Positions 14,926 to 49,494 of a stretch of DNA of 64,000 nt are shown here, piece after piece (the stretch's first letter is position 1; each line of letters opens with the position of its first letter). A program made the position numbers and the translations under genes. The notes beneath the pieces are model-generated. The model saw only the letters and a list, made by a program, of their open reading frames with translations, ran no database searches and had not been told where the DNA came from. This stretch comes from a virus: the IMG/VR virus record IMGVR_UViG_3300008117_000001; one strand, 5' to 3'.

Positions 14926-14928
14926 AAA

Positions 14929-15301: not shown

Positions 15302-15314
15302 TTAGGAGTTATTT

Positions 15315-16147: not shown

Positions 16148-16162
16148 TTATTGAAGCAACAA

Positions 16163-16342: not shown

Positions 16343-16447
16343 GAACAGTGTACTCTCTTTCTTTTGGATTTGCAACCTATTTTGATTTTTTTACCAAGAT
16401 AGTGTATACTTTATGTATGAATTATCTTGATGCATAAAGGATACACA

Positions 16448-17014
16448 ATGACCATACAGATTGTCAACCCAGAAGAGTTTTTTTTGGAGAAATCTTCTTT
16501 TAAAAAACATCCCAATTTGAAAAACATCAGGAACAAATCTATTGATTCTGAGATAATTGAAAACGACGCTGTAATTTCCAGGAAAAAAGGAAACGCGTAT
16601 CAGTATACCAAAACTGGATACAGAAAAGATATAGACATGAATGTCCGTTCTAGCTGGGAAGCAAATTTTGTTAGAGTATTAAGAATCTATAAAATTGATT
16701 TTCAATTTGAACCTACTGTTTTTTCTTTCCCAATTAAGAGGGGAACCAAAGGATATACTCCAGACTTTCTTTTAAATAGAAATAACGATTGGGTAGAAAT
16801 AAAAGGATACCTAGATGATAAGAGTAAGATAAAATTAAAAAGGTTTAAGAGATATTATCCAGATGAATTTGAAAACTTTACCTGCGTCATAAGTAAGTAT
16901 TCAAACGACGCAAAGAACTTTATGAAAGATTTAGAAGTACCAAATATTATTTTTTACGAAGATTTTAGAGATTATTACAGCGAATATATAGTTTGCTGGG
17001 AAGGAAAAAAATGA
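16448..17014 (+). CDS. T7 endonuclease I-like PD-(D/E)XK nuclease (resolvase-like)
   Basis: RSSWEANF, FQFEP, YTPDF, VEIKGY (start could be 16427). Confidence 0.78.
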   Translation: MTIQIVNPEEFFLEKSSFKKHPNLKNIRNKSIDSEIIENDAVISRKKGNAYQYTKTGYRKDIDMNVRSSWEANFVRVLRIYKIDFQFEPTVFSFPIKRGTKGYTPDFLLNRNNDWVEIKGYLDDKSKIKLKRFKRYYPDEFENFTCVISKYSNDAKNFMKDLEVPNIIFYEDFRDYYSEYIVCWEGKK

Positions 17015-17877
17015 CAAGTTATAAAGAACAATATTATTCTTTAGCAGAAGACGAGATGCAAAAACTAATAGCAGATAGCAAAAGGGGTTCGCAAAAAGCT
17101 CAAGCAGAACTGCTACAAGTCTTTAGTAACTTTTTAACGAAATATATTTCGTTACTGTATCACTGTAAGTTTAATTTAAATGATTATGACATTAGAAGGT
17201 TTATATCTTTATTCATAAAAGATCCTTCTACCCGATTCGCTTTGATGAAAAATAAAATAAAGGGCAATAATCTAAAAGTCGTAAATGAAACAATGCGGGG
17301 CATTCATTATATGACTAAAAGATATGGCGATGAAGAAGATATTCGGCAGACAGTTTACATGACGTTCTTCCAATGCCTAGGCAGGTACGAAAGAAAGGAT
17401 TCAGCAAAGGGGCCGATACCGTTTAGTGGATTTTTATATAGTTACTTTTTTTATCTTCTAAAGAAAAATGTGGATACATTTTTAATTGATCAACTTGGCA
17501 GAAAGACTTTCCCACTCCTTGATGACGAAGCAACAAACGATGAAAGTGACGAAGATTATGTTGTTGGGTTTAAGGCTGATCCAATAGAGTACAGCATGGA
17601 AAAACTAATGGCAACTGATAAAATAGATGAATTCTGGGTTTTGGGAGAGAAAGTAGAAGGACCATTTGATAAGCTATCCATACAAGAAAGACAGCTTTTA
17701 AAGTGGAGATACATTGATGGAAAAAGATCTAGCCAAATATCTCAAATTGTCAATGAGCATCCAAATACCGTAAGAGAGCATTTGTCTAAAGTTAGAGAAA
17801 AAATTAAACAAACCCTTTTGGAAGACGAGTTCTCGTATGAAGAACTTTACTATCTGTTAAAAATGGAGACTAAATGA
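17011..17877 (+). CDS. sigma70-family / sigma-like transcription factor
   Basis: Region-2-like EEDIRQTVYMTFFQCLGRY..FSGFLY; region 4 LSIQERQLLKWRY..SSQISQIVNEHPNTVREHL; GGAAGG SD. Confidence 0.72.
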   Translation: MTSYKEQYYSLAEDEMQKLIADSKRGSQKAQAELLQVFSNFLTKYISLLYHCKFNLNDYDIRRFISLFIKDPSTRFALMKNKIKGNNLKVVNETMRGIHYMTKRYGDEEDIRQTVYMTFFQCLGRYERKDSAKGPIPFSGFLYSYFFYLLKKNVDTFLIDQLGRKTFPLLDDEATNDESDEDYVVGFKADPIEYSMEKLMATDKIDEFWVLGEKVEGPFDKLSIQERQLLKWRYIDGKRSSQISQIVNEHPNTVREHLSKVREKIKQTLLEDEFSYEELYYLLKMETK

Positions 17878-26932: not shown

Positions 26933-27673
26933 ATGAATAATCCAGAAGTGTCAGTTGTATTAACTAGCTATAATAAGCCAAGCTATTTAGAAAAAGCAAT
27001 ACATTCAGTCATTCAGCAAACCTACGATAATATTCATTTAATTATTGCAGAAGACAATTCCCCAAACACAAAAGTCATGGATGTAATTCGTGATGTTGTT
27101 GATAATTATCGTGGAGATAAAAGAATAACATTCTTTAATTCATTTATCAAAGAGCAAGATAGGTTAAATACCGCCAGATATGCTACTCAGATAAACACCG
27201 CAGTTCGTTTATATTCAAGATCAAAATACATTTGCTATTTGGCGGACGATGACTTTTATTATCCTGAGATGATTGAGAAAATGGTTTTTTCAGCGGAAAA
27301 AAATAAACATGATGTTGTCTTCTGCGCACAACACATCCTAGATGCAGATGGCAATATTGATGGCTGGGGATTAGATGGTAGAGGCGTTAGATGGTTTAGT
27401 TCACCTTTGGAAAGAGGCGCTGATAAGTTAGACCATAATCAAGTCATGACAACTAGAAGAGTGTTTGATTTAGTAGACGGATGGGACGATCACCCGCACG
27501 CCTGGTCCGGCGCTGATGCATACTTCTTTGATAGAATAGAAAAAAATGGATTCTTATTTCATCCAATAGATTATGATAAACCTTTGCAGGGGAAAGTTTA
27601 TAGGGAAAAGTCAGTGCAGTGGAACTGCACAAACGGTTTCATGCCGACAATGGGAGAAGATAGAAATGTCTAA
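26933..27673 (+). CDS. glycosyltransferase family 2
   Basis: SVVLTSYN, AEDNS, CYLADDDFYYP, LDHNQVM. Confidence 0.88.
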   Translation: MNNPEVSVVLTSYNKPSYLEKAIHSVIQQTYDNIHLIIAEDNSPNTKVMDVIRDVVDNYRGDKRITFFNSFIKEQDRLNTARYATQINTAVRLYSRSKYICYLADDDFYYPEMIEKMVFSAEKNKHDVVFCAQHILDADGNIDGWGLDGRGVRWFSSPLERGADKLDHNQVMTTRRVFDLVDGWDDHPHAWSGADAYFFDRIEKNGFLFHPIDYDKPLQGKVYREKSVQWNCTNGFMPTMGEDRNV

Positions 27674-28541
27674 TGTATGGGCAGTTGGAATGGCAAGAGA
27701 TGAGGGTGATATCATATATCACACCATGATTCATCTCGCTGCAAATAAAGTAAACGGAATTATTATTGCAGATAATTTATCCAAAGATAATACCTGGGAA
27801 CAAATGAATCTAGCCAAGGAGCACATACAATCGCATGGATGCGATACTCAAGTTGTTCTTTTAAAAGATGATGTTGTCGGATATACTCAAAGTGAAAAGA
27901 TGACCGCTCTAGCGCAAAGAGCTAGAGAAAATGGTGCACAGTGGATTATTCCTTTTGATATAGATGAAATTTGGTTTTCGCCAAATCAAACTCTTTCTGA
28001 TGCCTTCAGTCAACTAGATGCCGAAAACGTTGACGTATATAGAACGTTATACACAAATCATTCCGTAACAGAATATGACACCCCAGGGAAATCGCCATTT
28101 CATTCAATGCAATATAAATGGGATCTCCCAACAAACCATAAGAGCTGCTTTAGGTTTAGAAAAAACGATGCTTTTGTCAAGATTTCAAATGGAAATCATT
28201 TTGTTCAACATAACGGTGGGAATATTGGCGCTAATGTCAACGTTTACATTGACGATTATGGTCATGATCGGATTGTTTTTGGTCCACAGATTCTTGCCAT
28301 TAGACATTTCCAGTGGAGATCTCTTGATCATTTTATTAAAAAAGTGACGAATGCCTATGAAGCGTGTAAAGCTCTTCCTAGCAATCATGATTTATATAAA
28401 GGTGCTGCATGGTGGCAAGAGTTTGAAGAATTCGAAGCAAATGGCGTACCTGGCTTAGAAAAAATGTATTACAAAAATATTTTAGTACAGGGAGATTTGG
28501 GCAGATTGATACATGACCCAGCCCCAATAATGGAGTTGTGA
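27666..28541 (+). CDS. glycosyltransferase family 2-like (Glyco_tranf_2_4 type)
   Basis: RDEGDII, ADNLSKDNT, WIIPFDIDE, IRHFQWRS; start MSNVWAV with GGAG SD. Confidence 0.82.
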   Translation: MSNVWAVGMARDEGDIIYHTMIHLAANKVNGIIIADNLSKDNTWEQMNLAKEHIQSHGCDTQVVLLKDDVVGYTQSEKMTALAQRARENGAQWIIPFDIDEIWFSPNQTLSDAFSQLDAENVDVYRTLYTNHSVTEYDTPGKSPFHSMQYKWDLPTNHKSCFRFRKNDAFVKISNGNHFVQHNGGNIGANVNVYIDDYGHDRIVFGPQILAIRHFQWRSLDHFIKKVTNAYEACKALPSNHDLYKGAAWWQEFEEFEANGVPGLEKMYYKNILVQGDLGRLIHDPAPIMEL

Positions 28542-29197
28542 TGAATAAAGTTTCTTTGATAATAATAACTGACGGCAGACAAGCATGTATTTCTGAAACA
28601 ATACCGTCCATGCGTAAAAATTTAAACTATAATTTTTATGAGAAAATAATAATTAATGATTCAGCAGATCTTAGATATCATCAATATTTAATGTCTAATT
28701 ATCCAGATTTTCGTATAGTTTCACATGAAACTAGAAGAGGTTTGGCTGGAGCAGTACAGTCAGCATGGACTTCCGTTTCTCGTGATTCAGATTATATTTT
28801 TCATTTAGAAGATGACTTCTTGTTTAATCAGGAAATCAGTATTGAAAATCTTATATCACTTCTTGAATCTAATCCTAATCTTGTTCAAATGGCTTTGGTG
28901 CGCGCTCCGGTTAATCCGCCCGAAGAAGAGGTGGGCGGATTTGTCTTTCAACACTTAGAAGACTACACTCAAAAGGATGGCTTTTTTGAACATGGTAGAT
29001 TGTTTACTTTAAATCCTTGTTTGTATCCAATGTCTACCGTAAGAATGGGGTGGCCAGATCATGGTGGCGAATCTGAATTCACTTCAAAAGTTCACTCGTT
29101 AAATGACAGTTATAGATTTGGTTTTTATGGAGAAATATATGATAAGCCATATGTGACGCATATTGGTGGAAGAAGAAGTGAAGGATGGTTCCTATAA
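28538..29197 (+). CDS. glycosyltransferase family 2
   Basis: IINDSAD, GLAGAVQSAW, FHLEDDF, HIGGRRS. Confidence 0.8.
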   Translation: MMNKVSLIIITDGRQACISETIPSMRKNLNYNFYEKIIINDSADLRYHQYLMSNYPDFRIVSHETRRGLAGAVQSAWTSVSRDSDYIFHLEDDFLFNQEISIENLISLLESNPNLVQMALVRAPVNPPEEEVGGFVFQHLEDYTQKDGFFEHGRLFTLNPCLYPMSTVRMGWPDHGGESEFTSKVHSLNDSYRFGFYGEIYDKPYVTHIGGRRSEGWFL

Positions 29198-29908
29198 ATG
29201 CAAAAAGAAATTATAGTAAATAAAAATAATATTTCCTTTAAAGTAGAAGACAGCAAAGAGCTCCATCAAGATGTTGGTTATAATTTTTGGTCAGAAAAAT
29301 ATTCTTCTTGGGAGAATAGCACTTTTCAAGTATTAGATAAGTATTTATCAAAAGATAAAGATTATTTAGATATAGGCTCATGGGTTGGACCAACGGCAAT
29401 CTACGCTTCATTTCTAAGCAGAAGAGTATTTGCCGTAGAGCCAGACCCTACCGCCTATAAGATCCTGCAAAAAAATATTTCCTTAAACTCAATTACCAAT
29501 ATAATTCACTTTAACGCCGCTGCTTCAAATTTACAAACAGCTTACCTCAAACCAAATAGGTTCTTTGGAGATTCAATGACAAGAGTCTCAGAGAATGCAT
29601 CTTCGGGTATTGCTGTTAAAGCAATGGGTCTAGATGAGTTAATTTCGCTTGGAGATTTTTCTTTAATAAAAATTGATATTGAGGGACACGAGTTTCAACT
29701 AATCAAAGAATACATAAAAGTTTTAAACCAAGCAAAGATACCATTATTTTTATCTCTGCACACTCCCTTTTTTAATAATGGCGAATCCTTACTTAAAGAA
29801 CTCACGCAAAATCTTGCTAATACAAAACAGGTATTTGATGAGCAGGGTAGAAAAATAAGCTTAGAACAAATAGACAGTAGTTTTGGAAGTTATTTATTTT
29901 TGTGGTAG
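29198..29908 (+). CDS. FkbM-family SAM methyltransferase
   Basis: YLDIGSWVG, AVEPDP, LIKIDIEGHE. Confidence 0.88.
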   Translation: MQKEIIVNKNNISFKVEDSKELHQDVGYNFWSEKYSSWENSTFQVLDKYLSKDKDYLDIGSWVGPTAIYASFLSRRVFAVEPDPTAYKILQKNISLNSITNIIHFNAAASNLQTAYLKPNRFFGDSMTRVSENASSGIAVKAMGLDELISLGDFSLIKIDIEGHEFQLIKEYIKVLNQAKIPLFLSLHTPFFNNGESLLKELTQNLANTKQVFDEQGRKISLEQIDSSFGSYLFLW

Positions 29909-29912
29909 TTTT

Positions 29913-30551
29913 ATGGATTTAATAATCATTGGAGCGGGCGGACATGCTGTTGACCTGACCTATCTATCTGAAAATGATAAATATATTAAATGGAACATTA
30001 TAGGTTATCTAGATGATGATCCGGTAAATAGGTATAGCGACAAGACGATAGGGCCGGTTTCATCGCTGAGCGTTTATTTAAATAAATATAAAAATTTAAA
30101 ATATTGTATTGCCATTAACTCCTCAATAATAAGAAAAAAAATAGACTTACTCTATGGAGACGATGAAAAGTCAGCTAATTTGATCCATGAGACAGCTTTA
30201 ATAGGTAGCGAGTGCTCATATGGTAATGGCATTACTATGGGGCCATATTCTTTATTAACAACAAATGTTAAGATAGGCAAGCATGTCCATATTAATTCTG
30301 CAGCGTCGATTAATCAATCTAGCTTTATAGGAGACTACTGCACGGTAAGTCCCGGCGTTAGGGTTTGTGGGGATGTTAAAGTTGGCGACACCACTTCTAT
30401 AGGGGCTGGCGCAGTGATTATTAATTTCAAATCAATAGGAAGAGAATGTACACTGGGCGCTGGCACTGTAGTCATAGATAATATAAGCGATCATACAACT
30501 GTAGTCGGAGTGCCCGGTAGGGAAATAAAGAAGTTTGGCGAATATATTTAA
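29913..30551 (+). CDS. NeuD/PglD-family sugar O-acetyltransferase
   Basis: IIGAGGHA, GYLDD, hexapeptide repeats, VVGVPGR. Confidence 0.9.
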   Translation: MDLIIIGAGGHAVDLTYLSENDKYIKWNIIGYLDDDPVNRYSDKTIGPVSSLSVYLNKYKNLKYCIAINSSIIRKKIDLLYGDDEKSANLIHETALIGSECSYGNGITMGPYSLLTTNVKIGKHVHINSAASINQSSFIGDYCTVSPGVRVCGDVKVGDTTSIGAGAVIINFKSIGRECTLGAGTVVIDNISDHTTVVGVPGREIKKFGEYI

Positions 30552-35247: not shown

Positions 35248-38200
35248 ATGGCCAATACCCTTGTTATAAAAAATTCAGGTACTTCTACGTCCGTACCCTC
35301 TGCTCTGACTCATGGTGAAGTAGCAATCAATTATGCAGACGGTAAAATATTTTATAAAAACGCATCTAATACTATCGTTGCTTCTAAATTAATTACTGCA
35401 ATTACTGGAACAACAGATCAAATAAATGTAACTGAAACATCTGGTTCTTTTGCAATTAGCTTACCATCCTCTATATCAGTTACCAATAATGTAACTGCTG
35501 GAGGCTATCTTATTTCTAACAACTCATCTGGTGATGAGGGTGGTGAAATATTCCTAAAGAAAGCTGTTACAAATACCACTCTGACTGGTGGTGTTACCAT
35601 TGATGTCTATCAAAACAGGCTTCGTTTTTTTGAGCAGGGGGGGACAGCCAGGGGTTTTTATATTGACATAAGTACTGGAGGCAATGGTGCCAGTACGGAC
35701 ATTCTTGCTGGCGTACAGGGCCCCCAAGGTGCCCAAGGCCCCCAAGGTGCAACTGGATCACAAGGCGCTACCGGCCCTCAGGGTACACAAGGCCCCCAAG
35801 GTGCTACGGGTTCCCAGGGTTCACAAGGGCCACAGGGGGACATTGGCCCCCAAGGTGCCACAGGTCCCCAAGGTTCTACTGGGCCACAAGGTTCTACCGG
35901 TCCCCAGGGAGATGTGGGTCCACAGGGTGCACAAGGAGCAACAGGATCTCAAGGCCCGCAAGGGGCAGTAGGAGCACAGGGAGCTACTGGGCCCCAAGGT
36001 TCAACTGGAGCACAAGGCGCTACGGGTCCACAAGGAGACGCTGGACCCCAAGGCGCAACTGGCCCCCAAGGTTCTACGGGAGCACAAGGGGCAACTGGAG
36101 CACAAGGACCACAGGGTGATATTGGTCCACAGGGGGCAACTGGACCACAAGGTGCACAGGGAGATGTTGGTTCACAAGGGGCTACTGGCCCCCAAGGTGC
36201 TCAAGGTGCCACAGGCGCGCAAGGCCCACAAGGCGCTACTGGCCCCCAAGGTGCCACTGGACCTCAGGGTTCAACTGGAGCACAAGGCGCTCAGGGTCCA
36301 GTTGGTGGAGATGGTCCACAGGGTGACGTTGGCCCTCAAGGCGCTACTGGCCCTCAGGGAGCAACAGGGGCTCAGGGTCCACAGGGGGCTACCGGAGCAC
36401 AAGGCTCAACGGGAGCCCAAGGAGCTACAGGCGCCCAAGGACCGCAAGGTCCTCAAGGAGATATAGGTCCTCAGGGAGCTACTGGTGCCCAGGGAGCTAC
36501 TGGTGCCCAAGGAGCCACGGGGGCACAAGGTGACACTGGACCACAGGGTTCGACTGGACCACAAGGAGATGTGGGTCCTCAAGGTGCAGTTGGCTCACAG
36601 GGAGCTCAAGGTGCAACGGGCCCCCAAGGTGCTACTGGCCCCCAAGGTTCTACTGGTCCTCAGGGGCCACAGGGCCCACAAGGAGATACTGGCCCGCAAG
36701 GTGCAACAGGTGCACAGGGTGCCACAGGCGCCCAAGGACCGCAAGGAGCTACTGGTTCTCAAGGCGCACAAGGAGTCCAGGGTTCACAAGGGCCACAAGG
36801 CCCAGTCGGAAACCTTAACTCACACGAATCAGTAAGAACCGCTACAAATGCAGCCCTTCCCAACTCTCCTACATATACTGCTGGTACTGCTGATGACAAT
36901 AACGGAACTGGCGATGGCGCGTATCTTCAAGCATCAACATTTGGTGCTCTTGTTGTTGACTCACGTACTGTTGTTGCCAACGACAGAGTTCTCGTTAAAA
37001 ACCAAATTAACCAAATCCATAACGGTATCTATGTTGTAACAACAGTTGGCGACGGCTCTACATATTGGCGACTAACTCGTACCTCCGACTTTGACAATAC
37101 CGATGGTACAGAAGTTCAAAACGGTGACTATGTTTTTGTTTCACTAGGAACAGCAAATACGGGTACATCTTGGATGATGAACTCAATCGGTACGAATCCA
37201 GACAATTCAATAATTATCGGAACAGACGGAATGAACTGGGTTAATGTTGGTGGTGCTGGTCCACAAGGCGCTCAAGGACCGCAAGGTGCTGGTGGAACAA
37301 TTGCATACTGGGGTTCATTTTGGTCAAATCAAGATCAAACCGCAGTAGCTGCAAATACAGCTTATGCAATAACTTATGATAATTATGATTCTAATAATTT
37401 TGGAGTAACACTTTCTAATAATTCAAGAATTAATTTCGGTTATGCTGGCGTATATTCTTTGACTTTCTCAGTCCAATGGGCAAACAGTGATAGTCAGATT
37501 CATGATGCAAATATCTGGTTTAAGAAGAATGGTTCTAATATTCCTGACTCAGATAGCCGATGGAGCGTTGTTGAAAGCCATGGCGGAACAGATGGTAGAG
37601 CCATAGGTACAGTTAACCTGGTCTTAAGCCTCAATGCTAATGACTATATTGAGTTGTTTTGGCAAACAACAAATACTGGTATATCACTTGATTATTTTCC
37701 AGCAGTTTCTCCAGCACCAGCAATTCCTTCTATTATATTTACCGCTGTTCAGGTTACCTATACACAAGTTGGACCTCAAGGGCCCCAAGGTGCAACGGGT
37801 TCTCAGGGGGCAACTGGACCCCAGGGCGCTACAGGCGCTCAAGGTGCTACTGGAGCGCAAGGGTCACAAGGTGCTACTGGAGCTCAGGGAGCCACAGGTG
37901 CCCAAGGAGATACAGGACCGCAAGGTTCAACAGGCGCTCAAGGTCCAATAGGACCTCAGGGTGACACTGGACCTCAGGGCCCTCAGGGATCTGTTGGCCC
38001 TCAAGGAGCCACTGGTCCTCAAGGAGCCACAGGTCCCCAAGGTGCAACTGGCCCACAAGGAGATGTCGGGCCCCAAGGTGCTACAGGTGCCCAGGGTGCA
38101 ACCGGACCACAGGGGGCACAGGGAGCCACAGGTCCTCAGGGCGCAACAGGCGCCCAAGGTGCTACTGGCGCTCAAGGAGATGTTGGTCCACAGGGTTCCG

Positions 38201-39504
38201 TGGGTCCACAGGGACCACAAGGTTCTATTGGACCTCAAGGTGAAACGGGGTCACAGGGTGCAACTGGTCCACAAGGTGCTACTGGTGCCCAAGGTGCTAC
38301 AGGAGCCCAAGGCGATACTGGTCCCCAAGGTTCAACTGGACCACAGGGACCACAGGGTGACACAGGTCCTCAAGGTTCAACTGGTGCTACTGGCCCCCAA
38401 GGAGCTACCGGTGCTCAAGGTGCTACTGGCCCTCAAGGCGCCACTGGCCCTCAAGGCGCCACTGGCCCACAAGGTGATATCGGTCCTCAGGGTGCCCAAG
38501 GAGCCACAGGCCCTCAAGGAGCTACAGGCGCTCAAGGAGCTACCGGTCCTCAAGGTGCTACAGGTCCCCAGGGAGACATGGGACCGCAAGGATCAACAGG
38601 TCCACAAGGGCCCCAAGGTGCAACTGGAGCACAAGGTGCTACTGGTCCAGTAGCTGGTTCTGCTAATCAAGTTGTCTATAAAGATGGTTCTAATGCAGCT
38701 GCTGGCAGCGCAAACCTTACCTTTGACGGAACACGCCTAACAGCAGCAGCCTTAACGGTTGATACAAATACTCTTTATGTTGATGCAACTAATAATCGTG
38801 TTGGTGTTGGCACTTCTTCACCATCTGTTGAGCTCGATGTTCTTGGAACTCAAGTTATTCGTGTGGCATCCACGCAAGATGGTATTCAGTTGGCCGGTCG
38901 TGCTGGCGGAACTGGATCATTGTCTACAAAATTTATACCAACTACGTTGACCGCAAACAGAACATTAACTTTACCAAATAAATCTGGAACTGTTGCTACA
39001 ACAGCTGATATTGGTCTTGTTTACTTGTCAAGTGGCACATTCTCTGGCGCAACAGTAGTCAACTTGCAGTCAATATTTTCGTCTACTTATGATAATTATC
39101 GTCTTGTATTAACAAACTTGCAAGCAGCAAGCGGAGACTTTTATCTCTTCTATATCAATATGCTTTCTGGTGGCACAGCAGCAGCAACAGCTTACTACTA
39201 CGCTATGCAGGGACTTACATTTGGCGGAGTCGCAGACAATTATACTGGGCAAAATTCAAGCATAGGAGTATGTGGTGGAATATCTAACTCGGATATTCAT
39301 ATTGTTATGGATATATCTCGCCCATTTGTTGCAGATAGAACAATTATTTCAGCGCACTGTGCGTCGGCATGGGGTAACTATACATCCACTGTTCAACATA
39401 CAACGGCATCGTCTTATGATGGAATACAGCTTAACAATTTCAGATTAGGAGCAAGCACTGTCAATCTTTCTGGAACATGGAAACTTTATGGATATACAAA
39501 CTAA
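35248..39504 (+). CDS. collagen-like tail fibre / virion fibre protein
   Basis: N-terminal [18 protein letters not shown]; two long Gly-X-Y blocks (GPQ/GAT/GAQ); [14 protein letters not shown] and [14 protein letters not shown] fibre motifs. Confidence 0.9.
35716..36804 (+). repeat. collagen Gly-X-Y block 1
   Basis: Uninterrupted G-X-Y triplets with varied synonymous codons. Confidence 0.9.
37771..38646 (+). repeat. collagen Gly-X-Y block 2
   Basis: Uninterrupted G-X-Y triplets. Confidence 0.9.
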
Positions 39505-40081: not shown

Positions 40082-40858
40082 ATGGGAAAGTTTATTAGAG
40101 TTAACAATACTACAACTGGTGTGAGTTTTGTTGGTGGCACTTCGTCTACATACTCTGATTTACTAACATTGGGTAACCTAGTTGACGTTGCTGATCAAAT
40201 ATACGGATCAGGAGCCGATGGTTCTGTTACCTTTGATGGTTCAAGTACCGTCTTATCAATGGCCCCATCAACTTCAGTATACACTATGACAAGGGATATA
40301 TATTGCTATAATTTAACTTTGTCAGCAAACGTTCGTTTAAATCCAGCTGGATATAGAATATTTGTACAAAATAGTTTAACTTTTGGTAGTGGTTCTACTA
40401 TAGGTTTCACAACAGGCTTTTCTACTGCCGGATCAATTCAGCAAGGGGGCGCAAACAATACTGCTGTCACCCATAGTCTTGGTGGTTCTAGCGCTACTCA
40501 AACTGCAACTGCACCGACAGCTGCAACTGGTGGCACTGATTATTATAAGCAGTCGTTCCAAGCTGTCCGAGGCTACTCCATAACAGGGTCCTCAACTACT
40601 CCAACCTTTTTGCGTGGTGGAGCTGGTGGCGTTTCTGGAGCTGGTGGTGGCGTTGTAATACTCGCAGCAAGATTTATCACTGTTTCAAGTGGCACTGGTT
40701 ATATTAAGGCACCAGGTACAAGCGGTTCTGGTGGCGGTGGTGGCGGAGCAATTATTGTCATATCTTCATCCGCAGCTTTAAATAGTGGAATAACAACTGA
40801 CGTTACTGGTGGAACCAGCTGCGCTGCCGGAAATGTTATTTATTGTCAGGTAGCTTAA
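40082..40858 (+). CDS. Gly-rich fibre/tail protein
   Basis: IYGSGADGSVTF; GAGGGVVILAARFI..GSGGGGGGAIIVI. Confidence 0.78.
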   Translation: MGKFIRVNNTTTGVSFVGGTSSTYSDLLTLGNLVDVADQIYGSGADGSVTFDGSSTVLSMAPSTSVYTMTRDIYCYNLTLSANVRLNPAGYRIFVQNSLTFGSGSTIGFTTGFSTAGSIQQGGANNTAVTHSLGGSSATQTATAPTAATGGTDYYKQSFQAVRGYSITGSSTTPTFLRGGAGGVSGAGGGVVILAARFITVSSGTGYIKAPGTSGSGGGGGGAIIVISSSAALNSGITTDVTGGTSCAAGNVIYCQVA

Positions 40859-40860
40859 TT

Positions 40861-42651
40861 ATGAGTAACCGTATTCGTAGACTTAATCAAACTAAAACTC
40901 AACGTGATGATTCTATTTTTGGCGAAGGAACAGACGGTGATGTAACCATAACTAGTGGAACTACATATTTAACTAAAGATATGTATTACACTAATTTAAC
41001 AGTTGATTCTGGAGCAACATTATTTACGAATGGATTTCGTATATTTGTTAACGGAACACTTACAAATAATGGCACCTTAGGTATGCCCGCGGCAACTTTG
41101 TCAAATATTTCCGATGGATCAGGCACAGTATCTGGTAGACAGAACGCATTAAACCCAGCAAGCGCCTGGGGCACAAGTAATACAACAATTGATCCCACAG
41201 TCCTGCATGATTTAGACGATTCAATTTCTGGCTGGCTTATAACAAGCGCTGGAACAATAACAAAAATTGGTGGCGGTTCTCTTGGCACTTCCGGTACATC
41301 GGGAAACGTTACAGCAGCAACAGGACCATTTGCTGGGAACGCTGGTAACTTTATCGGAGCAACTGTTGGTCAAGCTGGTGGTGCCGGAAATGCTGGCACT
41401 GCGGGAAATGCTGCTACTGCTGGAACGGGCGGAGTTGGCGGGCCTGGTGGAGGGCTGGTAATAATTATTGCAAAAACTATAGCTGGATCTGGAACAATAG
41501 TTAGTTATGGTTATGCAGGCGGCGCAGGCAATCCAGCAACCCAAGGTAATCCCGGTTCAGCTGGAAACCCCGCACCAAATATAACTGGATATCATAATTC
41601 TGGTAACTTTCCACATAATGCTGGTGGTACTATTGTTAATCCAACTTCTGGTACTCCACACCCTTCTGGGCATAATGCTGGATCACACCCCCATCCATCT
41701 GGAGCGCATCCGCATCCAGATGGCGGCCCTCATGCTAACCCTCATAATGCGGTTCTTCATACCGCAACCGGGCACCATAATGCATCGAACACACATATCC
41801 ACGCGCCCCATGGGCACAATGCCGTAACACATCGATCTGCCCCATATGTAACATATGTTTTAGGTCATAATGGTGGTTCCGCTCATAACTCTGGTCACGG
41901 CAGTCATCCCCATGGTGTTAATGGACATAGAGTTTCTGGTCATAATGGAAACTCAAATGCATCTCATGGCTCCCATGCATCAGGAATTAGTGTTAACTCA
42001 ATTGGCTTCAGCAACCATAATGGAACGGTAAACAAAAACTCAACAATTAATTCTGGTCATGGCCATCACGCTGGCAATCATAACGCTGGCAATCATCCAT
42101 ATTCTCATCCATCAGGATCATTTCCTAATAACCCAGCTTCTCACCACAATGGACACGTTTACACGAATGCAGGACATGGTCACCACCATGTCGCTGCTGC
42201 ATCGCACCCCGCTACAAATGCTCCGCATACTAACATTCCTAGCGTTGGATTAAACTCTGGCCACAATGGCGTCCAGCACCACCACGCAGGGCATCATCCA
42301 CACCCTGCTGGATCACATCCGCACCCTGCTGGTAGTACAGGGCCATCTCCCCATAGTGGCACACCTCATCCTTCTGGCCACAACGCTGGTAGTCATCCCC
42401 ACAGTGCTGCTACCGTTAATGTAATAACAGGAGCTGTAACCAGTAATAGAACTAGTGCCCCAAGTCATAACGCTACAAATGTTAACTTTAGTGGTGGTAC
42501 TGGTGGAGCAGCTGGAGCAGCAGGTGCTGCCAATGCAGGAAATCCAGGAAATCAAGGTAGTACAGGTGGAATAATTGTGGTTACAAGAAATCCTGGAAAT
42601 GTTTCACCACAAATAGGCCATTCAAATTATTCAAAAATAATAGATATTTAA
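40861..42651 (+). CDS. Gly-rich fibre protein with about 295-aa His-rich insertion
   Basis: IFGEGTDGDVTI (paralogous to previous gene); GGPGGGLVIIIAKTI; about 60 His counted, many in HxH dyads. Confidence 0.85.
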   Translation: MSNRIRRLNQTKTQRDDSIFGEGTDGDVTITSGTTYLTKDMYYTNLTVDSGATLFTNGFRIFVNGTLTNNGTLGMPAATLSNISDGSGTVSGRQNALNPASAWGTSNTTIDPTVLHDLDDSISGWLITSAGTITKIGGGSLGTSGTSGNVTAATGPFAGNAGNFIGATVGQAGGAGNAGTAGNAATAGTGGVGGPGGGLVIIIAKTIAGSGTIVSYGYAGGAGNPATQGNPGSAGNPAPNITGYHNSGNFPHNAGGTIVNPTSGTPHPSGHNAGSHPHPSGAHPHPDGGPHANPHNAVLHTATGHHNASNTHIHAPHGHNAVTHRSAPYVTYVLGHNGGSAHNSGHGSHPHGVNGHRVSGHNGNSNASHGSHASGISVNSIGFSNHNGTVNKNSTINSGHGHHAGNHNAGNHPYSHPSGSFPNNPASHHNGHVYTNAGHGHHHVAAASHPATNAPHTNIPSVGLNSGHNGVQHHHAGHHPHPAGSHPHPAGSTGPSPHSGTPHPSGHNAGSHPHSAATVNVITGAVTSNRTSAPSHNATNVNFSGGTGGAAGAAGAANAGNPGNQGSTGGIIVVTRNPGNVSPQIGHSNYSKIIDI

Positions 42652-42690: not shown

Positions 42691-42939
42691 ATGACATTTT
42701 TTAATTCAATTACAAATGAACGCAAAATCCAAATTCTTACTTTAAGAATATCCTCTCTTAAAGAGCAACTATGGATGATTCTAATAGACGCTGGTTTAAT
42801 TCCAGAAGAATTAGATATGGCTGCATTTGATCCTGAAACAGATATTTCAGAGGAAAATGCACATTATAGAATACAAGTATCTCAAACATTAGATCTAATT
42901 AATAAAACTGAATTAATTAAGTCTGGAATTACGGTTTGA
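42691..42939 (+). CDS. small acidic protein, putative paralogue A
   Basis: LKEQLWMILIDAGLIPEELD. Confidence 0.7.
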   Translation: MTFFNSITNERKIQILTLRISSLKEQLWMILIDAGLIPEELDMAAFDPETDISEENAHYRIQVSQTLDLINKTELIKSGITV

Positions 42940-42940
42940 T

Positions 42941-43531
42941 ATGAAATTTGTTGAGCACGCTCCGTGCATTGTTCAGTATGATAATATTTTTAAAGCAGAA
43001 AAGTTTTTAGAATTATTAGAATCTGAGTGCAATGAATCATGGGGCTATCTAAGCTGGCAACGTTCAACTGTCGGCACTGGTGAAGTCTCAGATATGCGTA
43101 CATCTTTTGGCTGCGAACTTTCTCCTCTAAGTGTAGATAACATTGAAGTTGATAGAGTCAAGCCTCTTGTTGAAGAGTGGAGAAATTTGTGGTCCAAAAT
43201 AGACCCAATTGTTTGGGATTATAGAAATAATTTTGAATTAGACCTAGAAGCTGATGAGGGCTATAGAGTGCTCAAATACAATGGTGGCGCAGAATATAAA
43301 GCTCACCATGATCATTTTAGGACAAACGAAAGAAGTTTAAGCCTAGTTGCATTTCTTAATGATAATTATACGGGTGGTAATTTAGTCTTTCCAAAATTTA
43401 ACGTATCAATAAAACCAAAAGCCGGAAGTGTAATACTATTTCCTTCCAACTTTCCGTATACCCATATAGCTGAACCTGTTGGTAAAAGCGACAATTCAAT
43501 TAAATACTCTTTAGTGACGTGGTTTAGATGA
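42941..43531 (+). CDS. 2OG-Fe(II) oxygenase (prolyl-4-hydroxylase-like)
   Basis: LKYNGGAEYKAHHD, FLNDNYTGGNL, FPSNFPYTH, KYSLVTW. Confidence 0.9.
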   Translation: MKFVEHAPCIVQYDNIFKAEKFLELLESECNESWGYLSWQRSTVGTGEVSDMRTSFGCELSPLSVDNIEVDRVKPLVEEWRNLWSKIDPIVWDYRNNFELDLEADEGYRVLKYNGGAEYKAHHDHFRTNERSLSLVAFLNDNYTGGNLVFPKFNVSIKPKAGSVILFPSNFPYTHIAEPVGKSDNSIKYSLVTWFR

Positions 43532-43686
43532 ATCCAGAAGACGAATATCCAAATATTGAATCTTTTCCAGAAACCAACTTTGATCATACATCTGGTAGAT
43601 ACATAACTGATAATGAAATTATTAACTGCACTATGTTAGATGCTTCTTTTATATTTAACCTGGAGAATGAAGAAGATGGGATATAA
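43528..43686 (+). CDS. small acidic peptide (52 aa)
   Basis: Own translation MNPEDEYPNIESFPETNFDH...ENEEDGI; ATGA overlap. Confidence 0.5.
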   Translation: MNPEDEYPNIESFPETNFDHTSGRYITDNEIINCTMLDASFIFNLENEEDGI

Positions 43687-43945
43687 TTTACAAAATGATT
43701 TTGATTACGTTAGCAACACATTGCTAACAATGGCATCCGTTGTTGGGGTTGACATTAATAATCTTTCCGATGTTACTCTCAATGATTTAATGGAGGCATG
43801 TGCTAATACATTTGGTAGCGCAGAACATAATCAAGATTCCCCAATTGCATCGGCTCAGTATGCAGAATTAAGAAGATATCAGGCCTCCTTTAAAAGATTT
43901 TGGTATATGTATAGTGTTTTAAATTGGAGAATAAATAATGCTTAA
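43676..43945 (+). CDS. small protein, putative paralogue B
   Basis: VSNTLLTMASVVGVDINNLS; GGAG SD. Confidence 0.65.
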   Translation: MGYNLQNDFDYVSNTLLTMASVVGVDINNLSDVTLNDLMEACANTFGSAEHNQDSPIASAQYAELRRYQASFKRFWYMYSVLNWRINNA

Positions 43946-44633
43946 TAATTATGATTTGTTTAAATTGACAAATATTCTTTCTCACACCACGTCATCAGAT
44001 ATTAATCCCATTGATATTGCCAACAATAATTCTATTATTATCCAAGATGAAATTAATACTGGAGTAGATAGAAGTAGAAATGCTATTGGATATTCTGTTC
44101 AGTTAAATTGGTTAGATCAAATAAGTGATCCATCAAGTTCCGCTATGGATATAGAGATATTATCTCGGTCGATGATAGAAATTATTATTAGAATAAAAAA
44201 TTCTTCAAAACTATTATTTTTAGGCATGAATTATATTTTAGGTTCTACACTTAAATCTATTGTAGATAATGTCGACTATGCGAATATAATGAACTTAAAA
44301 TATATGGAAGACTATATTAATGAACCTATTGATGAATCTAATGTCATATCTATGCAAGACATAGAACAGGGTAACATAGATCTAGATTACGATACTGTAT
44401 TTTTAGATACAGAATTAGTTAGTCATGATTTTAATATCGTAGATAATATTTGGGAAAAACTATCTAGCGGTGCACTTTTAATTTTAAATACAGTAAATGA
44501 TTTTGGATTTCTTTATTCATCCAAAAATCAGCATCCTTACTTCGAATACTTGTCACGTTTAACGCAAGACGAAGATAAACATGTGTTTCATATTCCAGTA
44601 GCAACCGGTTTTACCTTAGTGGTTAAAAAATGA
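43938..44633 (+). CDS. class I SAM-methyltransferase-like protein (divergent)
   Basis: LLFLG, YDTVFLD, LSSGALLILN, FHIPVATGFTLVVK. Confidence 0.55.
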   Translation: MLNNYDLFKLTNILSHTTSSDINPIDIANNNSIIIQDEINTGVDRSRNAIGYSVQLNWLDQISDPSSSAMDIEILSRSMIEIIIRIKNSSKLLFLGMNYILGSTLKSIVDNVDYANIMNLKYMEDYINEPIDESNVISMQDIEQGNIDLDYDTVFLDTELVSHDFNIVDNIWEKLSSGALLILNTVNDFGFLYSSKNQHPYFEYLSRLTQDEDKHVFHIPVATGFTLVVKK

Positions 44634-46105
44634 ATCAAAAAAAAATAGTTATTGTTGGATCTGGAACAGCGGGACTTGTTACTGGATTAACAATTAAAAG
44701 TTATTTTAAAAATTATGATGTAACAATAATATCATCCAGCAAGATGGGGATAGTTGGTGTTGGCGAAGGTTCTACGGAACATTGGCGCTTGTTTCAGGAG
44801 ATGGTCGGCATAGACGTCCATGATATGATCAAGAACGCAGACATCACTCATAAATATGGGATACGTTATGAAAACTGGACCAATCATACTCCAGATTATT
44901 TCCATAGTGTAGGAGAAATTGGGTTAACCATTGGTGGCTTTTGGGCAGGGTATGCTACAGCCCTAGAGAATAATCGTTTGTTAACAAACACATATTCTTG
45001 GCGCGGATTAATAGAAAATAAAATAATTGATCAGGGTGACAAAACACATTATGGAACAAACCAGTACCATTTTGATACTTTTAAGTTAAATAAATATTTG
45101 GTAGAAGTATCAAAAAATAAAGGTATTTTGTTTATAGATGATGAAGTGACAAACGTTCAAGTAGATGAAGACGGATTTATAGAATCGGTTTTTCTTTCTG
45201 AATTAAAAAAAGATATTGCAGCTGATTTTTTTATTGATGCAACAGGATTCCATAGGCAGCTCTTAAGCAAGATAGGCGATCAAACATTCATAGATTATAG
45301 AAAGTATTTACCGTGTAATACGGCAATTGCGTTTCCAACTGAATCGGACCCTTCTGGTCAAATAAGACCATACACAAGGGCTAGAGCTCTTAAGAATGGT
45401 TGGATGTGGGAAATACCCACTCAAAAAAGACGTGGAAACGGATATGTATTTTCGTCTGATTTCTGTACCGTAGACCAAGCTATAGCTGAAGCTTCTGAAG
45501 TGCATGGCTTTGAAGTTGTGCCAGCAAAAGTGATTAATTTTAAGGCAGGATATTTTAAAGAAACATGGAAAAATAATTGCATTGCAGTGGGGTTAGCGGC
45601 TTCTTTTGTTGAGCCATTAGAAGCTACGTCCATATCTACTTCAATTCAACAGGCAAAATTAATCTGTTCCTATCTTCCTACTTTCGATAAAAATAGAAAT
45701 TATGGGATCAAAGAGTATCACCGTATTATGGATTCCATGATGAATAATATTCTGTGCATGATATCTTTGCATTATATTTCGGATAGAAATGACACTGAAA
45801 TGTGGGCTGCACAGCAAAAAGCAGATAAGCCTGAACTATTGGAACACTTACTGCAACTGTGGAATGTACGCTGTCCAGAATTTTCAGATATCCCTTCAAC
45901 TGGATTTGAGCTTTTTGGATCAGCTCATTTATGGCATGTTGCCCAGGGTCAGGGTGTTTTAAATCCAGAAATGGCGTCATTGCAACTAGACGCTTATGGT
46001 TCTCGAAAAAATGTGATAGAATTCATTGCAAATTTTTCTAAGCAATTAGTTACTCAAAGATTGGTAGATCATGCGCAAGCACTCGCAGCAACTGCAAATA
46101 GTTAG
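44630..46105 (+). CDS. flavin-dependent halogenase (tryptophan halogenase family)
   Basis: IVGSGTAG, IVGVGEGST, FIDATG, GWMWEIP (WxWxIP), GYVFS, VEPLEATSI. Confidence 0.92.
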   Translation: MNQKKIVIVGSGTAGLVTGLTIKSYFKNYDVTIISSSKMGIVGVGEGSTEHWRLFQEMVGIDVHDMIKNADITHKYGIRYENWTNHTPDYFHSVGEIGLTIGGFWAGYATALENNRLLTNTYSWRGLIENKIIDQGDKTHYGTNQYHFDTFKLNKYLVEVSKNKGILFIDDEVTNVQVDEDGFIESVFLSELKKDIAADFFIDATGFHRQLLSKIGDQTFIDYRKYLPCNTAIAFPTESDPSGQIRPYTRARALKNGWMWEIPTQKRRGNGYVFSSDFCTVDQAIAEASEVHGFEVVPAKVINFKAGYFKETWKNNCIAVGLAASFVEPLEATSISTSIQQAKLICSYLPTFDKNRNYGIKEYHRIMDSMMNNILCMISLHYISDRNDTEMWAAQQKADKPELLEHLLQLWNVRCPEFSDIPSTGFELFGSAHLWHVAQGQGVLNPEMASLQLDAYGSRKNVIEFIANFSKQLVTQRLVDHAQALAATANS

Positions 46106-46892
46106 TCCAAAAATTTTCAATGATATCCCTAAGCTTAAAGAAGGTCAGATTTTTTTAGCTCCACAATCATTATTTTTGATGGATGATTTGTGTAGACCTT
46201 TTCTTAATTTAGGCAATTGGCCAGATTGGTGGAGAAATCTTACTGGTGAAGAGGGCAGCATAAAAAGATGTTCGGGAACATCAGACTATATATCAACAGG
46301 CTTTACAATTCCTTTGTGGACAAAGCTAATGTTTCGCCCATCTATGGATCATCGTTCATGGGATGTTAAGTTCGATCTAACTAATGAGATTGGTGATTTT
46401 GGCATAGAGGGCTTTTCTTTTGCGCAAACTGGCGAATGTCCAGTAACGAAAGCTAGAAAAATACAAAACGCTAATTATGTTAAAGTTATTAATCCATGGT
46501 TAATAAAAACTCCACCTGGATGGTCTAGTCTATTTTTGCCCCCATTATGGGATCCAAATCCAAATTACACTATGCTACCAGCTGTAGTGAATACGGATTA
46601 CTATCACAATGCGCATATGGTTATTAATGTTTTAACAGATCAACCATTTGAGCTAGAGGCAGGGAGACCTATGTGGCACGTCATACCGTTCCCTAGAACA
46701 AAATCTAAAGATATAATATGGGGAGACGAGAACGCATATTCATTATTGCGTTGGCGTGGTTTCGGTGGTCCATTCATGCCTAAAAAACAAAAAAGTAAAT
46801 ATAAGAAAATGGAACGAGAAACAGATGAAAATCTTTCTGTGGAAAAGAAGTCATTTTTTAGTAAACTATTCAAATCAAACAAGGGGTCATAA
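46071..46892 (+). CDS. DUF6065-like hypothetical protein
   Basis: NPWLIKTPPGWSSLF..LPAVVNTDYY..IPFPR (start uncertain). Confidence 0.6.
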   Translation: MRKHSQQLQIVSPKIFNDIPKLKEGQIFLAPQSLFLMDDLCRPFLNLGNWPDWWRNLTGEEGSIKRCSGTSDYISTGFTIPLWTKLMFRPSMDHRSWDVKFDLTNEIGDFGIEGFSFAQTGECPVTKARKIQNANYVKVINPWLIKTPPGWSSLFLPPLWDPNPNYTMLPAVVNTDYYHNAHMVINVLTDQPFELEAGRPMWHVIPFPRTKSKDIIWGDENAYSLLRWRGFGGPFMPKKQKSKYKKMERETDENLSVEKKSFFSKLFKSNKGS

Positions 46893-47128
46893 TGGATTTT
46901 GTAATATCAGAAAATCAAAAAAAATTAATTAAAGACTCTGCTAAAAAGAAGCTAGAGTTAGAGATTTACTCTGCGGCTATTGTAGCCGGTATAGATCCTG
47001 AATCATTGGAATTATCAAATGGTATTTTTACATGGACACCATCAACTACTGATGATTCTTGGATTTCTCAAGCTGAAAAACACCTGCGTCAAGTATTAGA
47101 CGTATATGAAAACTTTTTGGCGCACTAA
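46892..47128 (+). CDS. small acidic protein, putative paralogue C
   Basis: LELEIYSAAIVAGIDPESLE; TAATG coupling. Confidence 0.7.
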   Translation: MDFVISENQKKLIKDSAKKKLELEIYSAAIVAGIDPESLELSNGIFTWTPSTTDDSWISQAEKHLRQVLDVYENFLAH

Positions 47129-47143
47129 CACTGGATATTTTAA

Positions 47144-47836
47144 ATGAGTGAAATTAAATTTTCTTGGCCAGCTGGAAAAAGTTCTGCAATATTTTTGGCT
47201 GAAAATATAATAGATGAAAATACATGTTCAAATGTACTTACGGAATGCAAAAAGTATTATCAAACATTTTTTTCTCCTGGCCCAACCCTTGGTGGAATAG
47301 ATTCATCTGTAAAAAATAGCATGGATATGAGTTGGTCCTATCAGGCTTTGCTTGACGCCGAAGTGCCCACAGAACCATTGACTACATATGAAAATATAAT
47401 AACTCAAAAACTTTTTCAAACTATAGAAATTTACAGAGAAGCCTTTAGGTGGCTTTGGACCTGGACTAACATATCTGATACTGGATTTAGAGTTCAGGAA
47501 TACAGAAAAGGCATAGGGTTCTATAGGGAGCATATCGATGGCGGAATAGGCCCTCAAGAGGCTAGCAATAGAATTTTGGCTGCAATTATATATTTAAATA
47601 CAGTTGAAGTTGGTGGGGGAACCTTTTTTAGAGAACATGATTTAATGGTTCCGGCAAGAGCAGGATCTATTTGCCTGTTCCCAACAAACTGGACTCATCC
47701 GCATCAAGGTTGTGTTCCAATATCTGATGATAAGTGGATTATTAGTACGTTTATAGTGCCCACTCCAGTGTCAGTCGATTCTAAGGAAATTATACTTAGC
47801 TCTACACCAATGCCAAATGACAACAAAAAATCTTGA
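47144..47836 (+). CDS. 2OG-Fe(II) oxygenase
   Basis: GFYREHID, IYLNTVEVGGGT, FPTNWTHPH, KWIISTF. Confidence 0.9.
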   Translation: MSEIKFSWPAGKSSAIFLAENIIDENTCSNVLTECKKYYQTFFSPGPTLGGIDSSVKNSMDMSWSYQALLDAEVPTEPLTTYENIITQKLFQTIEIYREAFRWLWTWTNISDTGFRVQEYRKGIGFYREHIDGGIGPQEASNRILAAIIYLNTVEVGGGTFFREHDLMVPARAGSICLFPTNWTHPHQGCVPISDDKWIISTFIVPTPVSVDSKEIILSSTPMPNDNKKS

Positions 47837-48440
47837 TACCTATTACGATCCATTAACTAATAGGACGTTATTTGTTAGGCCAAAACCTTTTTTGTTGAAA
47901 AATGTTTTTTCTGATGAAGATTTTTTAAATATTAAAAATAAAATTCAGTTTGAAAAAGATAACAGCATTCTACAATACGCAAAGTTCTTGGGAAGATTTT
48001 CTATTATCAAAGAAAATTTTCTTCAAGATGAACATAATATTCTTTTGGAAAAGGCAAGGGGGATATTTTCTAAAGACCTTCTACCAACTTACTGCGCATA
48101 TGGCTTGTATAAAGGATTTAGAGCTAATCTACCCAAACACGTAGATGATAATGGTTGCACTTATACGATTGATCTATGTGTGTCTTATAAAACTCGCTGG
48201 CCCATTTTTGTAGAAGGCCAAGAATTTGATCCACAAGAAAATGAGGCTGTATGCTATTATGGTGAGGATCAATATCATTGGAGAAATGAATTTACTGATC
48301 CATCAAATAATGAGGTTGAAATGATTTTTTTCCACTTTGCAGAACCAGAACATTGGTATTTTACGATTGGTCCAAATCATAAAGAAGAAATTGTAAGATT
48401 AAGAATTGAGCACGAGAATAAGATTGGAAAAATAAAATGA
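47817..48440 (+). CDS. 2OG-Fe(II) oxygenase
   Basis: LPKHVD, YYGEDQYHWR, IFFHF. Confidence 0.8.
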   Translation: MTTKNLDTYYDPLTNRTLFVRPKPFLLKNVFSDEDFLNIKNKIQFEKDNSILQYAKFLGRFSIIKENFLQDEHNILLEKARGIFSKDLLPTYCAYGLYKGFRANLPKHVDDNGCTYTIDLCVSYKTRWPIFVEGQEFDPQENEAVCYYGEDQYHWRNEFTDPSNNEVEMIFFHFAEPEHWYFTIGPNHKEEIVRLRIEHENKIGKIK

Positions 48441-48724
48441 AAATTCTATTTAATAAGATCCTTGCAGCATTAAAAACTGCTAGTAGCAGATCTTACTGGA
48501 ACAAGGTTAATACTGTAGAAGCGTGGGGGTTTGCGACTAAGATCGCTATTATTTTCCCAGGACTTTTATTTGGCTATCAATGGTGGTGGCTGTATATTTT
48601 CGCAATTGCATCAAGCCTATCTTTAATCTGGACATCAACAGAAAAGACTCTGCCAACTATTATTTTGTTCAATGTGTTGTGGGTTATTTTGGCAACAACG
48701 GCGATTGTTAGGCACTTCGTATGA
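48437..48724 (+). CDS. multi-TM membrane protein
   Basis: Three hydrophobic segments in 95 aa. Confidence 0.7.
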   Translation: MKILFNKILAALKTASSRSYWNKVNTVEAWGFATKIAIIFPGLLFGYQWWWLYIFAIASSLSLIWTSTEKTLPTIILFNVLWVILATTAIVRHFV

Positions 48725-49494
48725 TCTCAATTATAACACCTACATATAACACAGATAAAAGTGTTCTTGCTCGAACCTGGGCGTCTTTAAAAGCTCAAAC
48801 ATATACGGATTGGGAATGGGTCATTATAGACGACTCTACTAATGAAAATGTCTGGCATCAGGTATATGGCTTTGCTTCCGACGAAAGATATAAAATTCAA
48901 ATGCACAAGAGTCATGTCCACTCTGGAAACATAGGCCTGAATAAAAGACGTGGATTTATGCTTGCAGAGGGGCAAATACTTGTTGAGCTAGATCATGACG
49001 ATGTGCTTACTGCAGACGCTCTACAGGAGATTTACGAGGCATTCCAGGCCAATCCTGAGGTAGGCTTTGTCTATTCTGATTGGTGCGAGATTTTGCCTGA
49101 TGGACAATCTGGAGTTTATCCTAAAGGTTGGGCTTTTGGATATGGCTCAGAGTACTGGTCTGAGGAGCATGGCGTTTGGGTTATGTCTTCCCCGGAAATA
49201 AATCCAACTACCATGAAGCATATTGTTTCTGCGCCCAACCATGTTAGAGCCTGGAGATCAAGCCTGTACCACCAGCTGGGTGGCCATAATCCAGACTACG
49301 AAGTTGCCGATGACTATGAATTAATTGTTAGAACGTTTTTAGCAACTAAGTTTTATCATATTAAAAAACTACTGTATAAACAGTACATCAGCCCCGCTAC
49401 TGCGCAAAGACAAAAGAATGATTTGATTCAAAAATATGTAGCTGACATTTCAGCTAGGTACTCTGATGATATAGATAAGGTTTTCCAGATTTAA
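48721..49494 (+). CDS. glycosyltransferase family 2
   Basis: SIITPTYN, VIIDDS, VELDHDD, ADDYEL. Confidence 0.9.
   Translation: MISIITPTYNTDKSVLARTWASLKAQTYTDWEWVIIDDSTNENVWHQVYGFASDERYKIQMHKSHVHSGNIGLNKRRGFMLAEGQILVELDHDDVLTADALQEIYEAFQANPEVGFVYSDWCEILPDGQSGVYPKGWAFGYGSEYWSEEHGVWVMSSPEINPTTMKHIVSAPNHVRAWRSSLYHQLGGHNPDYEVADDYELIVRTFLATKFYHIKKLLYKQYISPATAQRQKNDLIQKYVADISARYSDDIDKVFQI

Follow-up and report, generated by a model that had tools for sequence, protein, structure and literature searches.

Which role is played by the small proteins that are encoded between the tailoring enzymes of a phage, and are these small proteins related to each other? The question is raised by the IMG/VR virus record IMGVR_UViG_3300008117_000001, of which a stretch of 64,000 nucleotides (nt), called the window in the following, was analysed. 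Downstream of its fibre region the window contains a tight run of 12 genes, all located on the + strand (42691 to 49494). A preliminary description of this DNA had recognised three small putative paralogues in this run, here called S1 (42691-42939), S2 (43676-43945) and S3 (46892-47128), and had proposed that each of them forms a repeated adaptor-plus-enzyme unit together with the modifying enzyme encoded directly downstream. The three open reading frames (ORFs) are present and encode 82, 89 (or 101, if translation starts at an earlier ATG) and 78 amino acids (aa), respectively. The picture is revised in two respects by the analysis: there are two paralogues, S1 and S3, rather than three, and it is the gene upstream and not the enzyme downstream to which the linkage is conserved.

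Two of the three small proteins as members of one family

In BLASTP, the window copies of S1 and S3 align with an E-value of 0.017 and their orthologues in contig L008 with an E-value of 4e-5. S1 orthologues are present in five related contigs; the profiles of the S1 and S3 orthologue sets match each other in hhalign (58%, E 1e-4) and the merged alignment lines up across the whole length. Searching 1.84 billion representative proteins with the joint S1/S3 profile resulted in 56 matches at E ≤ 1e-3, and 53 of these are 56-92 aa long and match from residue 1. The three long matches (320, 1308 and 2434 aa) were considered as fusion proteins and judged to be spurious, as they either lack a relevant Pfam family or are adhesin-type repeat proteins. 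The alignment of the 53 sequences (A9) defines the family, to which the name FAM is given here. FAM members start with MxF..[ST]xExK, followed by a long N-terminal helix ending with LY..L and by a G[IV]DP[ED]xFD turn, while the second half is built of a loop of variable, acidic/Pro/aromatic sequence and, after it, a C-terminal helix that is amphipathic. The hidden Markov model (HMM) of A9 recovers S1 (E 8e-24) and S3 (E 2e-23) from the ORFs of the window; both are rows of A9, meaning that these scores are self-matches and that the independent information lies in the absence of a score for any other ORF, including S2. S1 and S3 are true paralogues of one family, though distant and anciently diverged. 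FAM members are acidic (isoelectric point, pI, 4.5 for S1 and 4.8 for S3), have a size of about 80 aa (68-92 aa) and are predicted to fold into an antiparallel helical hairpin. The AlphaFold2 model of S3 (predicted local distance difference test, pLDDT, 79) shows helices at residues 7-31 and 56-77 and in between a beta-hairpin at residues 40-47, an insert specific to the S3 subfamily.

S2 is not assigned to FAM because neither BLASTP nor the HMM nor a significant hhalign match relates it to the family and because the proposed motif is unconserved in its orthologues. There is no BLASTP alignment of S2 with S1 or S3, hhalign against S1, S3 and FAM profiles yields 0.3-2.4% (2.4% to FAM), and S2 is missing from the A9 HMM matches even at E<10. 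The motif [AV]G[LIV][DI][PI]xxL, which had been described as common to the three proteins, is indeed confined to S1, S2 and S3, with exactly three occurrences in the 584 window ORFs of at least 40 aa, compared to 0.08 occurrences expected from shuffles and 0 of 200 shuffles reaching three; since the motif had been written to fit S1-S3, this test of its uniqueness is circular. Among the orthologues of S2 the motif is lost, the corresponding sequence being IGGETDV in L003, for example. The AlphaFold2 model of S2 (pLDDT 87.5) consists of three helices (residues 5-22, 35-46 and 56-88), for which Foldseek against the PDB retrieves only generic helical hairpins, and the C-terminus contains a conserved RRFWY..VL.WR. 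The assumption that S1, S2 and S3 are all paralogues, each pairing with the enzyme downstream, would agree with the helix that leads into a G-hydrophobic-D turn at about the same position in all three proteins, with profile alignments in which the turn of S2 falls on that of FAM, albeit without significance, and with the S2 homologue that is found with the cassette in a distant contig (L024:8428-8733, E 2e-7). The lack of a detectable relation, the loss of the motif in the orthologues of S2 and its predicted topology of three helices instead of a hairpin speak against it, and together with the gene order described below they render it highly improbable. S2 represents a different small helical family that also accompanies the cassette.

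That the pattern has no named family, as the preliminary description had stated, holds true for S1 and S3. Neither S1 and S3 nor S2 matches a Pfam family at E ≤ 0.1, and searching the 53 FAM members against Pfam at E ≤ 0.01 resulted in three families matched by one member each, none of them consistently; matches to Nif11 or nitrile-hydratase-type leaders in Pfam were found neither for S1-S3 nor for the FAM members. No match to FAM was found in PHROG, the ESM Atlas returned only unnamed viral clusters, and the single match of the A9 profile among the PDB sequences, a designed repeat protein, was judged to be irrelevant. Using S1, S2, S3, P0029 and P0032 as queries, tblastn gave no match in 50,697 GenBank phage records. 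Moreover, the A9 profile was silent in T4 and in five cultured halogenase-bearing phages (S-H38, HTVC008M, P-SSM2, S-SRM01 and S-SCSM2R; Syn9 was outside this search), and the same search yielded matches in the uncultured relatives G002-G005. A motif scan of bacterial and archaeal genomes resulted in no convincing FAM gene among the at least 120 loci listed, the best candidate among these having an E-value of 7e-4 and lying inside a 149-aa ORF. FAM is an unnamed family that has been found so far on phage contigs only, and the lack of a family match or a catalytic motif suggests that it is most likely a non-enzymatic protein.

Position of FAM within the tailoring cassette

The whole cassette is kept in the same order in five related IMG/VR contigs. 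Furthermore, two near-complete relatives, G002 (194 kb, 92% complete) and G003, each contain exactly two FAM genes and two genes encoding PF13640 oxygenases, pairwise adjacent, and this pairing of two for two is what would be expected if each FAM protein formed a unit with a downstream enzyme. The five contigs and G002/G003 represent one lineage, and a wider search followed, in which two motif scans of IMG/VR gave 50 further FAM genes, 29 after dereplication. These genes sit in about ten differently arranged contig classes of the same cassette. The commonest order starts with a p258-like gene, a His/Gly-rich fibre gene, FAM, u132, a PF13640 oxygenase and the halogenase, and continues with a p273-like gene, FAM, u2xx and p95, where u132 is a protein of 129-132 aa and u2xx a protein of 216-238 aa. 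Most cassettes that are seen in full length contain at least two FAM units, free or fused. The gene upstream of the 29 dereplicated members encodes a fibre in 11 cases (nine homologues of the Gly-/His-rich fibre-type protein p602 and two homologues of the collagen-like fibre), a p273-like or DUF6065 protein in eight cases (seven p273-like proteins and a 232-aa protein of contig L024 matching DUF6065 with E 3e-42) and another FAM protein in three cases. Downstream, u132 follows nine times, u2xx seven times, another FAM gene three times and a recognisable oxygenase once.

This shows that FAM is a constant part of the cassette with two preferred slots, i.e., slot A right after the fibre gene and slot B right after the DUF6065-like gene. 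S1 occupies slot A behind p602 (40843-42651, + strand, 602 aa), the conserved gene upstream of this slot, and S3 occupies slot B behind p273 (46071-46892, 273 aa; phrog_7084 E 4e-23, weak DUF6065), which is likewise conserved there. Only the window clade shows the arrangement in which the small gene immediately precedes a modifying enzyme. In the window, S1 does precede a 2-oxoglutarate (2OG)-Fe(II) oxygenase as had been described, namely the prolyl-hydroxylase-type Oxy1 (42941-43531, 196 aa, PF13640 E 2e-15), which has orthologues in most cassettes. S3 was thought to precede two such oxygenases; the first of them, Oxy2 (47144-47836, 230 aa), is a second PF13640 protein (E 8e-10) and is related to Oxy1 (BLASTP 2e-10, hhalign 96%), whereas the second, p207 (47817-48440, 207 aa), shows no relation to the Oxy1 and Oxy2 profiles in hhalign (below 1%), has no Pfam match and matches phrog_2954 (E 3e-12) among PHROG families labelled ferrochelatase. 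Similarly, from the pair of a methyltransferase-like protein and a halogenase reported to follow S2, the flavin-dependent tryptophan-halogenase-type protein is confirmed (44630-46105, 491 aa, PF04820 E 2e-102), and the 231-aa protein p231 (43938-44633), kept in the window clade, has no significant Pfam or PHROG match. The linkage of FAM to tailoring enzymes extends to the related genomes, as it is tied to the cassette in every arrangement found. A repeated unit of an adaptor directly before an enzyme does not extend that far, with one of the 29 dereplicated members directly preceding a recognisable oxygenase.

Concerning the spacing of the genes in the window, the gap between the stop codon of S1 and the start codon of Oxy1 is 1 nt, an AAGGAG Shine-Dalgarno sequence lies upstream of S1, and the p273 stop codon overlaps with the S3 start codon as TAATG. 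S1 is thus translationally coupled to Oxy1 and S3 to p273.

The downstream neighbours u132 (e.g., L044:7085-7483) and u2xx (e.g., L064:2252-2947) are conserved cassette proteins that the window lacks. Searches of Pfam, PHROG and the PDB gave no match for either of them, and they show no relation to the oxygenases; u2xx contains an invariant REWS...HP...EID..PDM motif. A halogenase-free variant of the cassette is present in L024 (IMGVR_UViG_3300043438_001827, 1674-8733), where a collagen-like gene is followed by two PF13640 oxygenases, DUF6065, two FAM genes, a 98-aa gene, an acyltransferase of the wax ester synthase/diacylglycerol acyltransferase (WS/DGAT) type, a cytochrome P450 (P450) and later by the S2 homologue. 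The guess that a FAM protein ending with ..EEDGI precedes an S2-like gene proved wrong, since in L074 such a gene is followed by a further FAM gene.

Small chaperone genes come after fibre genes in many phages, and the T4 protein gp57A is a tail-fibre chaperone serving fibre biogenesis. FAM might accordingly be a gp57A-like tail-fibre assembly chaperone that folds or trimerises the preceding fibre, the enzymes being mere neighbours. The 11 of the 29 members located directly after a fibre-type gene, as is S1, would be accounted for in this way, and FAM resembles gp57A in being non-enzymatic, acidic, about 80 aa in size and predicted to be all-helical. Even the helix of gp57A is followed by a VGITGD turn reminiscent of that of FAM, and the fact that FAM was not found in the cultured cyanophages or in T4 could mean that it is a lineage-specific substitute. 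However, the turn is at residue 48 in gp57A and at residue 33 in FAM, and homology is not detectable (hhalign of A9 against T4 gp57A 0.2%, E 0.25, using a single gp57A sequence and not a family profile). In T4, neither fibre nor tailoring genes adjoin the gp57A gene, while FAM occurs in at least two copies per cassette, of which the second follows the DUF6065-like protein and not a fibre. Moreover, in the L024, L063, L065 and L074 classes the FAM genes sit among enzymes, and a chaperone would leave the fusion of FAM with u2xx described below unexplained. A chaperone function of this kind is regarded as unlikely.

Fusion of FAM to a neighbouring protein and its possible role

In a clade comprising L036, L038, L048 and L059, the gene after the slot-A FAM encodes a protein of 358-359 aa (L038:7208-8287, - strand; L048:4777-5853, + strand). 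The central region of this protein is a homologue of u2xx (hhalign 96%, E 4e-9), and the 80 residues at its C-terminal end resemble the helix-turn of FAM (hhalign 83.6%, E 8e-6). In L038 and L048, for which the DNA beyond the p273-like gene is present, there is no free slot-B FAM gene. The fusion of u2xx-like and FAM-like domains forms a Rosetta-stone pattern, which argues for a physical partnership and supports, as the best evidence available, that FAM works together with a neighbouring protein. L074 contains two FAM genes upstream of the gene for a u2xx-like protein of 397 aa.

The reading we favour, with a probability of roughly 45%, is that FAM acts as a non-catalytic adaptor, docking or holdase subunit within a fibre-linked tailoring system. 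It is preferred because FAM has no catalytic signature, is acidic and predicted to be folded and helical, occurs in at least two copies in most cassettes seen in full length and is translationally coupled to its neighbours in the window. FAM proteins would work by protein-protein binding, each of them pairing with the product of a flanking gene, i.e., S1 with Oxy1 and S3 with p273/Oxy2 in the window, and FAM with u132 and u2xx in other clades. By doing so, they might help to assemble the tailoring machinery or to aim it at its substrate, presumably the fibre. The fusion protein speaks for a function as partner or adaptor, the latter suggested in the preliminary description; the conserved adjacency is upstream, to the fibre or the DUF6065-like gene. 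As to the fibre, p602 contains a long His-, Asn-, Pro- and Gly-rich insert with HPHPSG-like repeats. Protein hydroxylases act on residues of the kinds found in this insert, and by its residue composition p602 is a candidate substrate for the cassette.

Several observations weigh against an adaptor function. The adjacent partner varies by clade, being an oxygenase, u132, u2xx, the halogenase or another FAM protein, so that adjacency may merely reflect the shared membership of one conserved cassette. Most of the contigs are derived from related uncultured phages, so that there are fewer independent observations than the counts would imply. In a maximum-likelihood tree of 38 FAM members the deep branches lack resolution, and slot A and slot B members do not fall into two clades. 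The fold is uninformative, as Foldseek with the S3 model against the PDB returns generic helical hairpins only and a wide VIA-align search does likewise. Finally, the FAM-like match of the fusion protein covers the N-terminal helix and the turn alone, about 30 columns, and the 397-aa protein of L074 has no significant FAM match.

With regard to a holdase function, a role that is known for prefoldin, the topology of the S3 model (helix, beta-hairpin, helix) is similar to that of prefoldin beta-type subunits, and a prefoldin chain is among the weak Foldseek matches of S3 (template modelling (TM) score 0.58, E 5.2, insignificant). However, this match is no better than those to many other coiled-coil hairpins, and the beta-hairpin belongs to the S3 subfamily only. 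The best VIA-align score of S3 (Z 6.2) is to unrelated coiled coils.

FAM could also be the substrate of the cassette, i.e., a small scaffold or a precursor similar to those of ribosomally synthesised and post-translationally modified peptides (RiPPs), whose exposed P/W/E/D-rich loop becomes hydroxylated or halogenated. RiPP precursors such as those with Nif11-type leaders in cyanobacteria are encoded by small, sometimes tandem genes beside oxygenases, halogenases and P450s, and the FAM genes, which are small and often arranged in tandem as well, adjoin oxygenases, a halogenase, a P450 and an acyltransferase. FAM shares with these precursors a conserved N-terminal half and a variable segment following it; Trp and Pro are kept in this loop in the S3 orthologues, and PF13640 enzymes include protein prolyl hydroxylases. 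Unlike disordered precursor peptides, FAM is predicted to be a folded hairpin with confident helices in both halves, and its C-terminus forms a conserved amphipathic helix instead of a hypervariable core. Many members from halogenase-bearing cassettes have a loop without Trp, no gene for a protease, a transporter or a recognition element was recognised among the cassette genes scanned, and the leader families mentioned above gave no match. A function as substrate is considered to be quite unlikely on these grounds.

An extension of the adaptor reading, which is tentative and rather doubtful, would see in FAM a docking module of phages that forms a class of its own. Its hairpins, whether free or fused, would bind one another as well as the products of the flanking genes and thereby build a multi-enzyme machine of oxygenase, halogenase, DUF6065 protein and u2xx on the His-rich, collagen-like fibre.

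The surrounding locus and the known dioxygenase/halogenase clusters

The Syn9-type dioxygenase/halogenase cluster of cyanophages was described in 2010 and includes an additional protein called dUTPase-fold with a conserved Cys (Iyer, Abhiman, de Souza and Aravind, 2010; PMC2938197). Similarly, two PF13640 genes and one PF04820 gene lie within 5 kb in the window, together with the gene for the DUF6065-like protein p273. The cassette of the window belongs to this known type of cluster. In the passages of the article that were covered no FAM-like family appears, and the phrase "small protein" occurs 0 times in the article (PMC2938197). No earlier description of FAM, its two slots and its fusion was found in the sources covered. 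In p273, Cys67, Cys123, Asp176 and His179 are invariant across 11 homologues, and the best matches of the p273 profile in the PDB are all dUTPases, which are insignificant (E 0.4-1); with its invariant Cys and these matches p273 would fit the dUTPase-fold protein of the Syn9-type cluster. The cassette of the window differs by its fixed position downstream of His-rich and collagen-like fibre genes and in that the phage is not T4-like.

The collagen-like fibre gene (35248-39504, + strand) is followed by three more genes of the fibre region, the last one encoding p602. Between Oxy1 and S2 lies a conserved 52-aa ORF, p52 (43528-43686), with orthologues in L001, L008 and L009, which is very acidic (pI 4.05) and overlaps with Oxy1 (ATGA) and S2 (11 nt). 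It was considered as a decayed FAM copy, and this was rejected; p52 is related neither to FAM nor to S2, hhalign to A9 and A7 remaining below 1%. Downstream of p207, the cassette ends with p95 (48437-48724), a small hydrophobic protein of 95 aa that is taken to be a membrane protein. It is a conserved end piece, and distant cassettes contain homologues of it (E 1e-43) in the corresponding position; it is followed by a family 2 glycosyltransferase (GT2) gene (48721-49494, PF00535 E 5e-19). The stretch ahead of the fibre genes (26933-30551) encodes, one after the other, three GT2 glycosyltransferases, an FkbM-type methyltransferase and a hexapeptide acetyltransferase.

A search of the region with blastn gave no match. 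The halogenase is 28-37% identical to the halogenases of cultured cyanophages and of a pelagiphage. The relatives of the window phage have genomes of 180-197 kb, i.e., it is a large phage. Its replication module (6732-17877) contains a DnaB-like helicase, a primase, an 1111-aa polymerase (phrog_405) and a sigma-factor-like gene. Because of this polymerase, the DnaB-like helicase and the sigma factor, the phage is not a T4-like cyanophage, though its halogenase resembles the cyanomyovirus enzymes.

The viral halogenase VirX1 has been characterised in vitro. As most of the fibre-linked cassettes in an extensive group of uncultured phages contain at least two copies of FAM, in some cases fused to a neighbour, this family offers a concrete handle for finding out which proteins of the cassette assemble with one another and if the fibre serves as their target. 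If FAM should indeed be a docking module, the natural target of viral halogenases and phage 2OG oxygenases would become reachable via a small and easily expressed handle.

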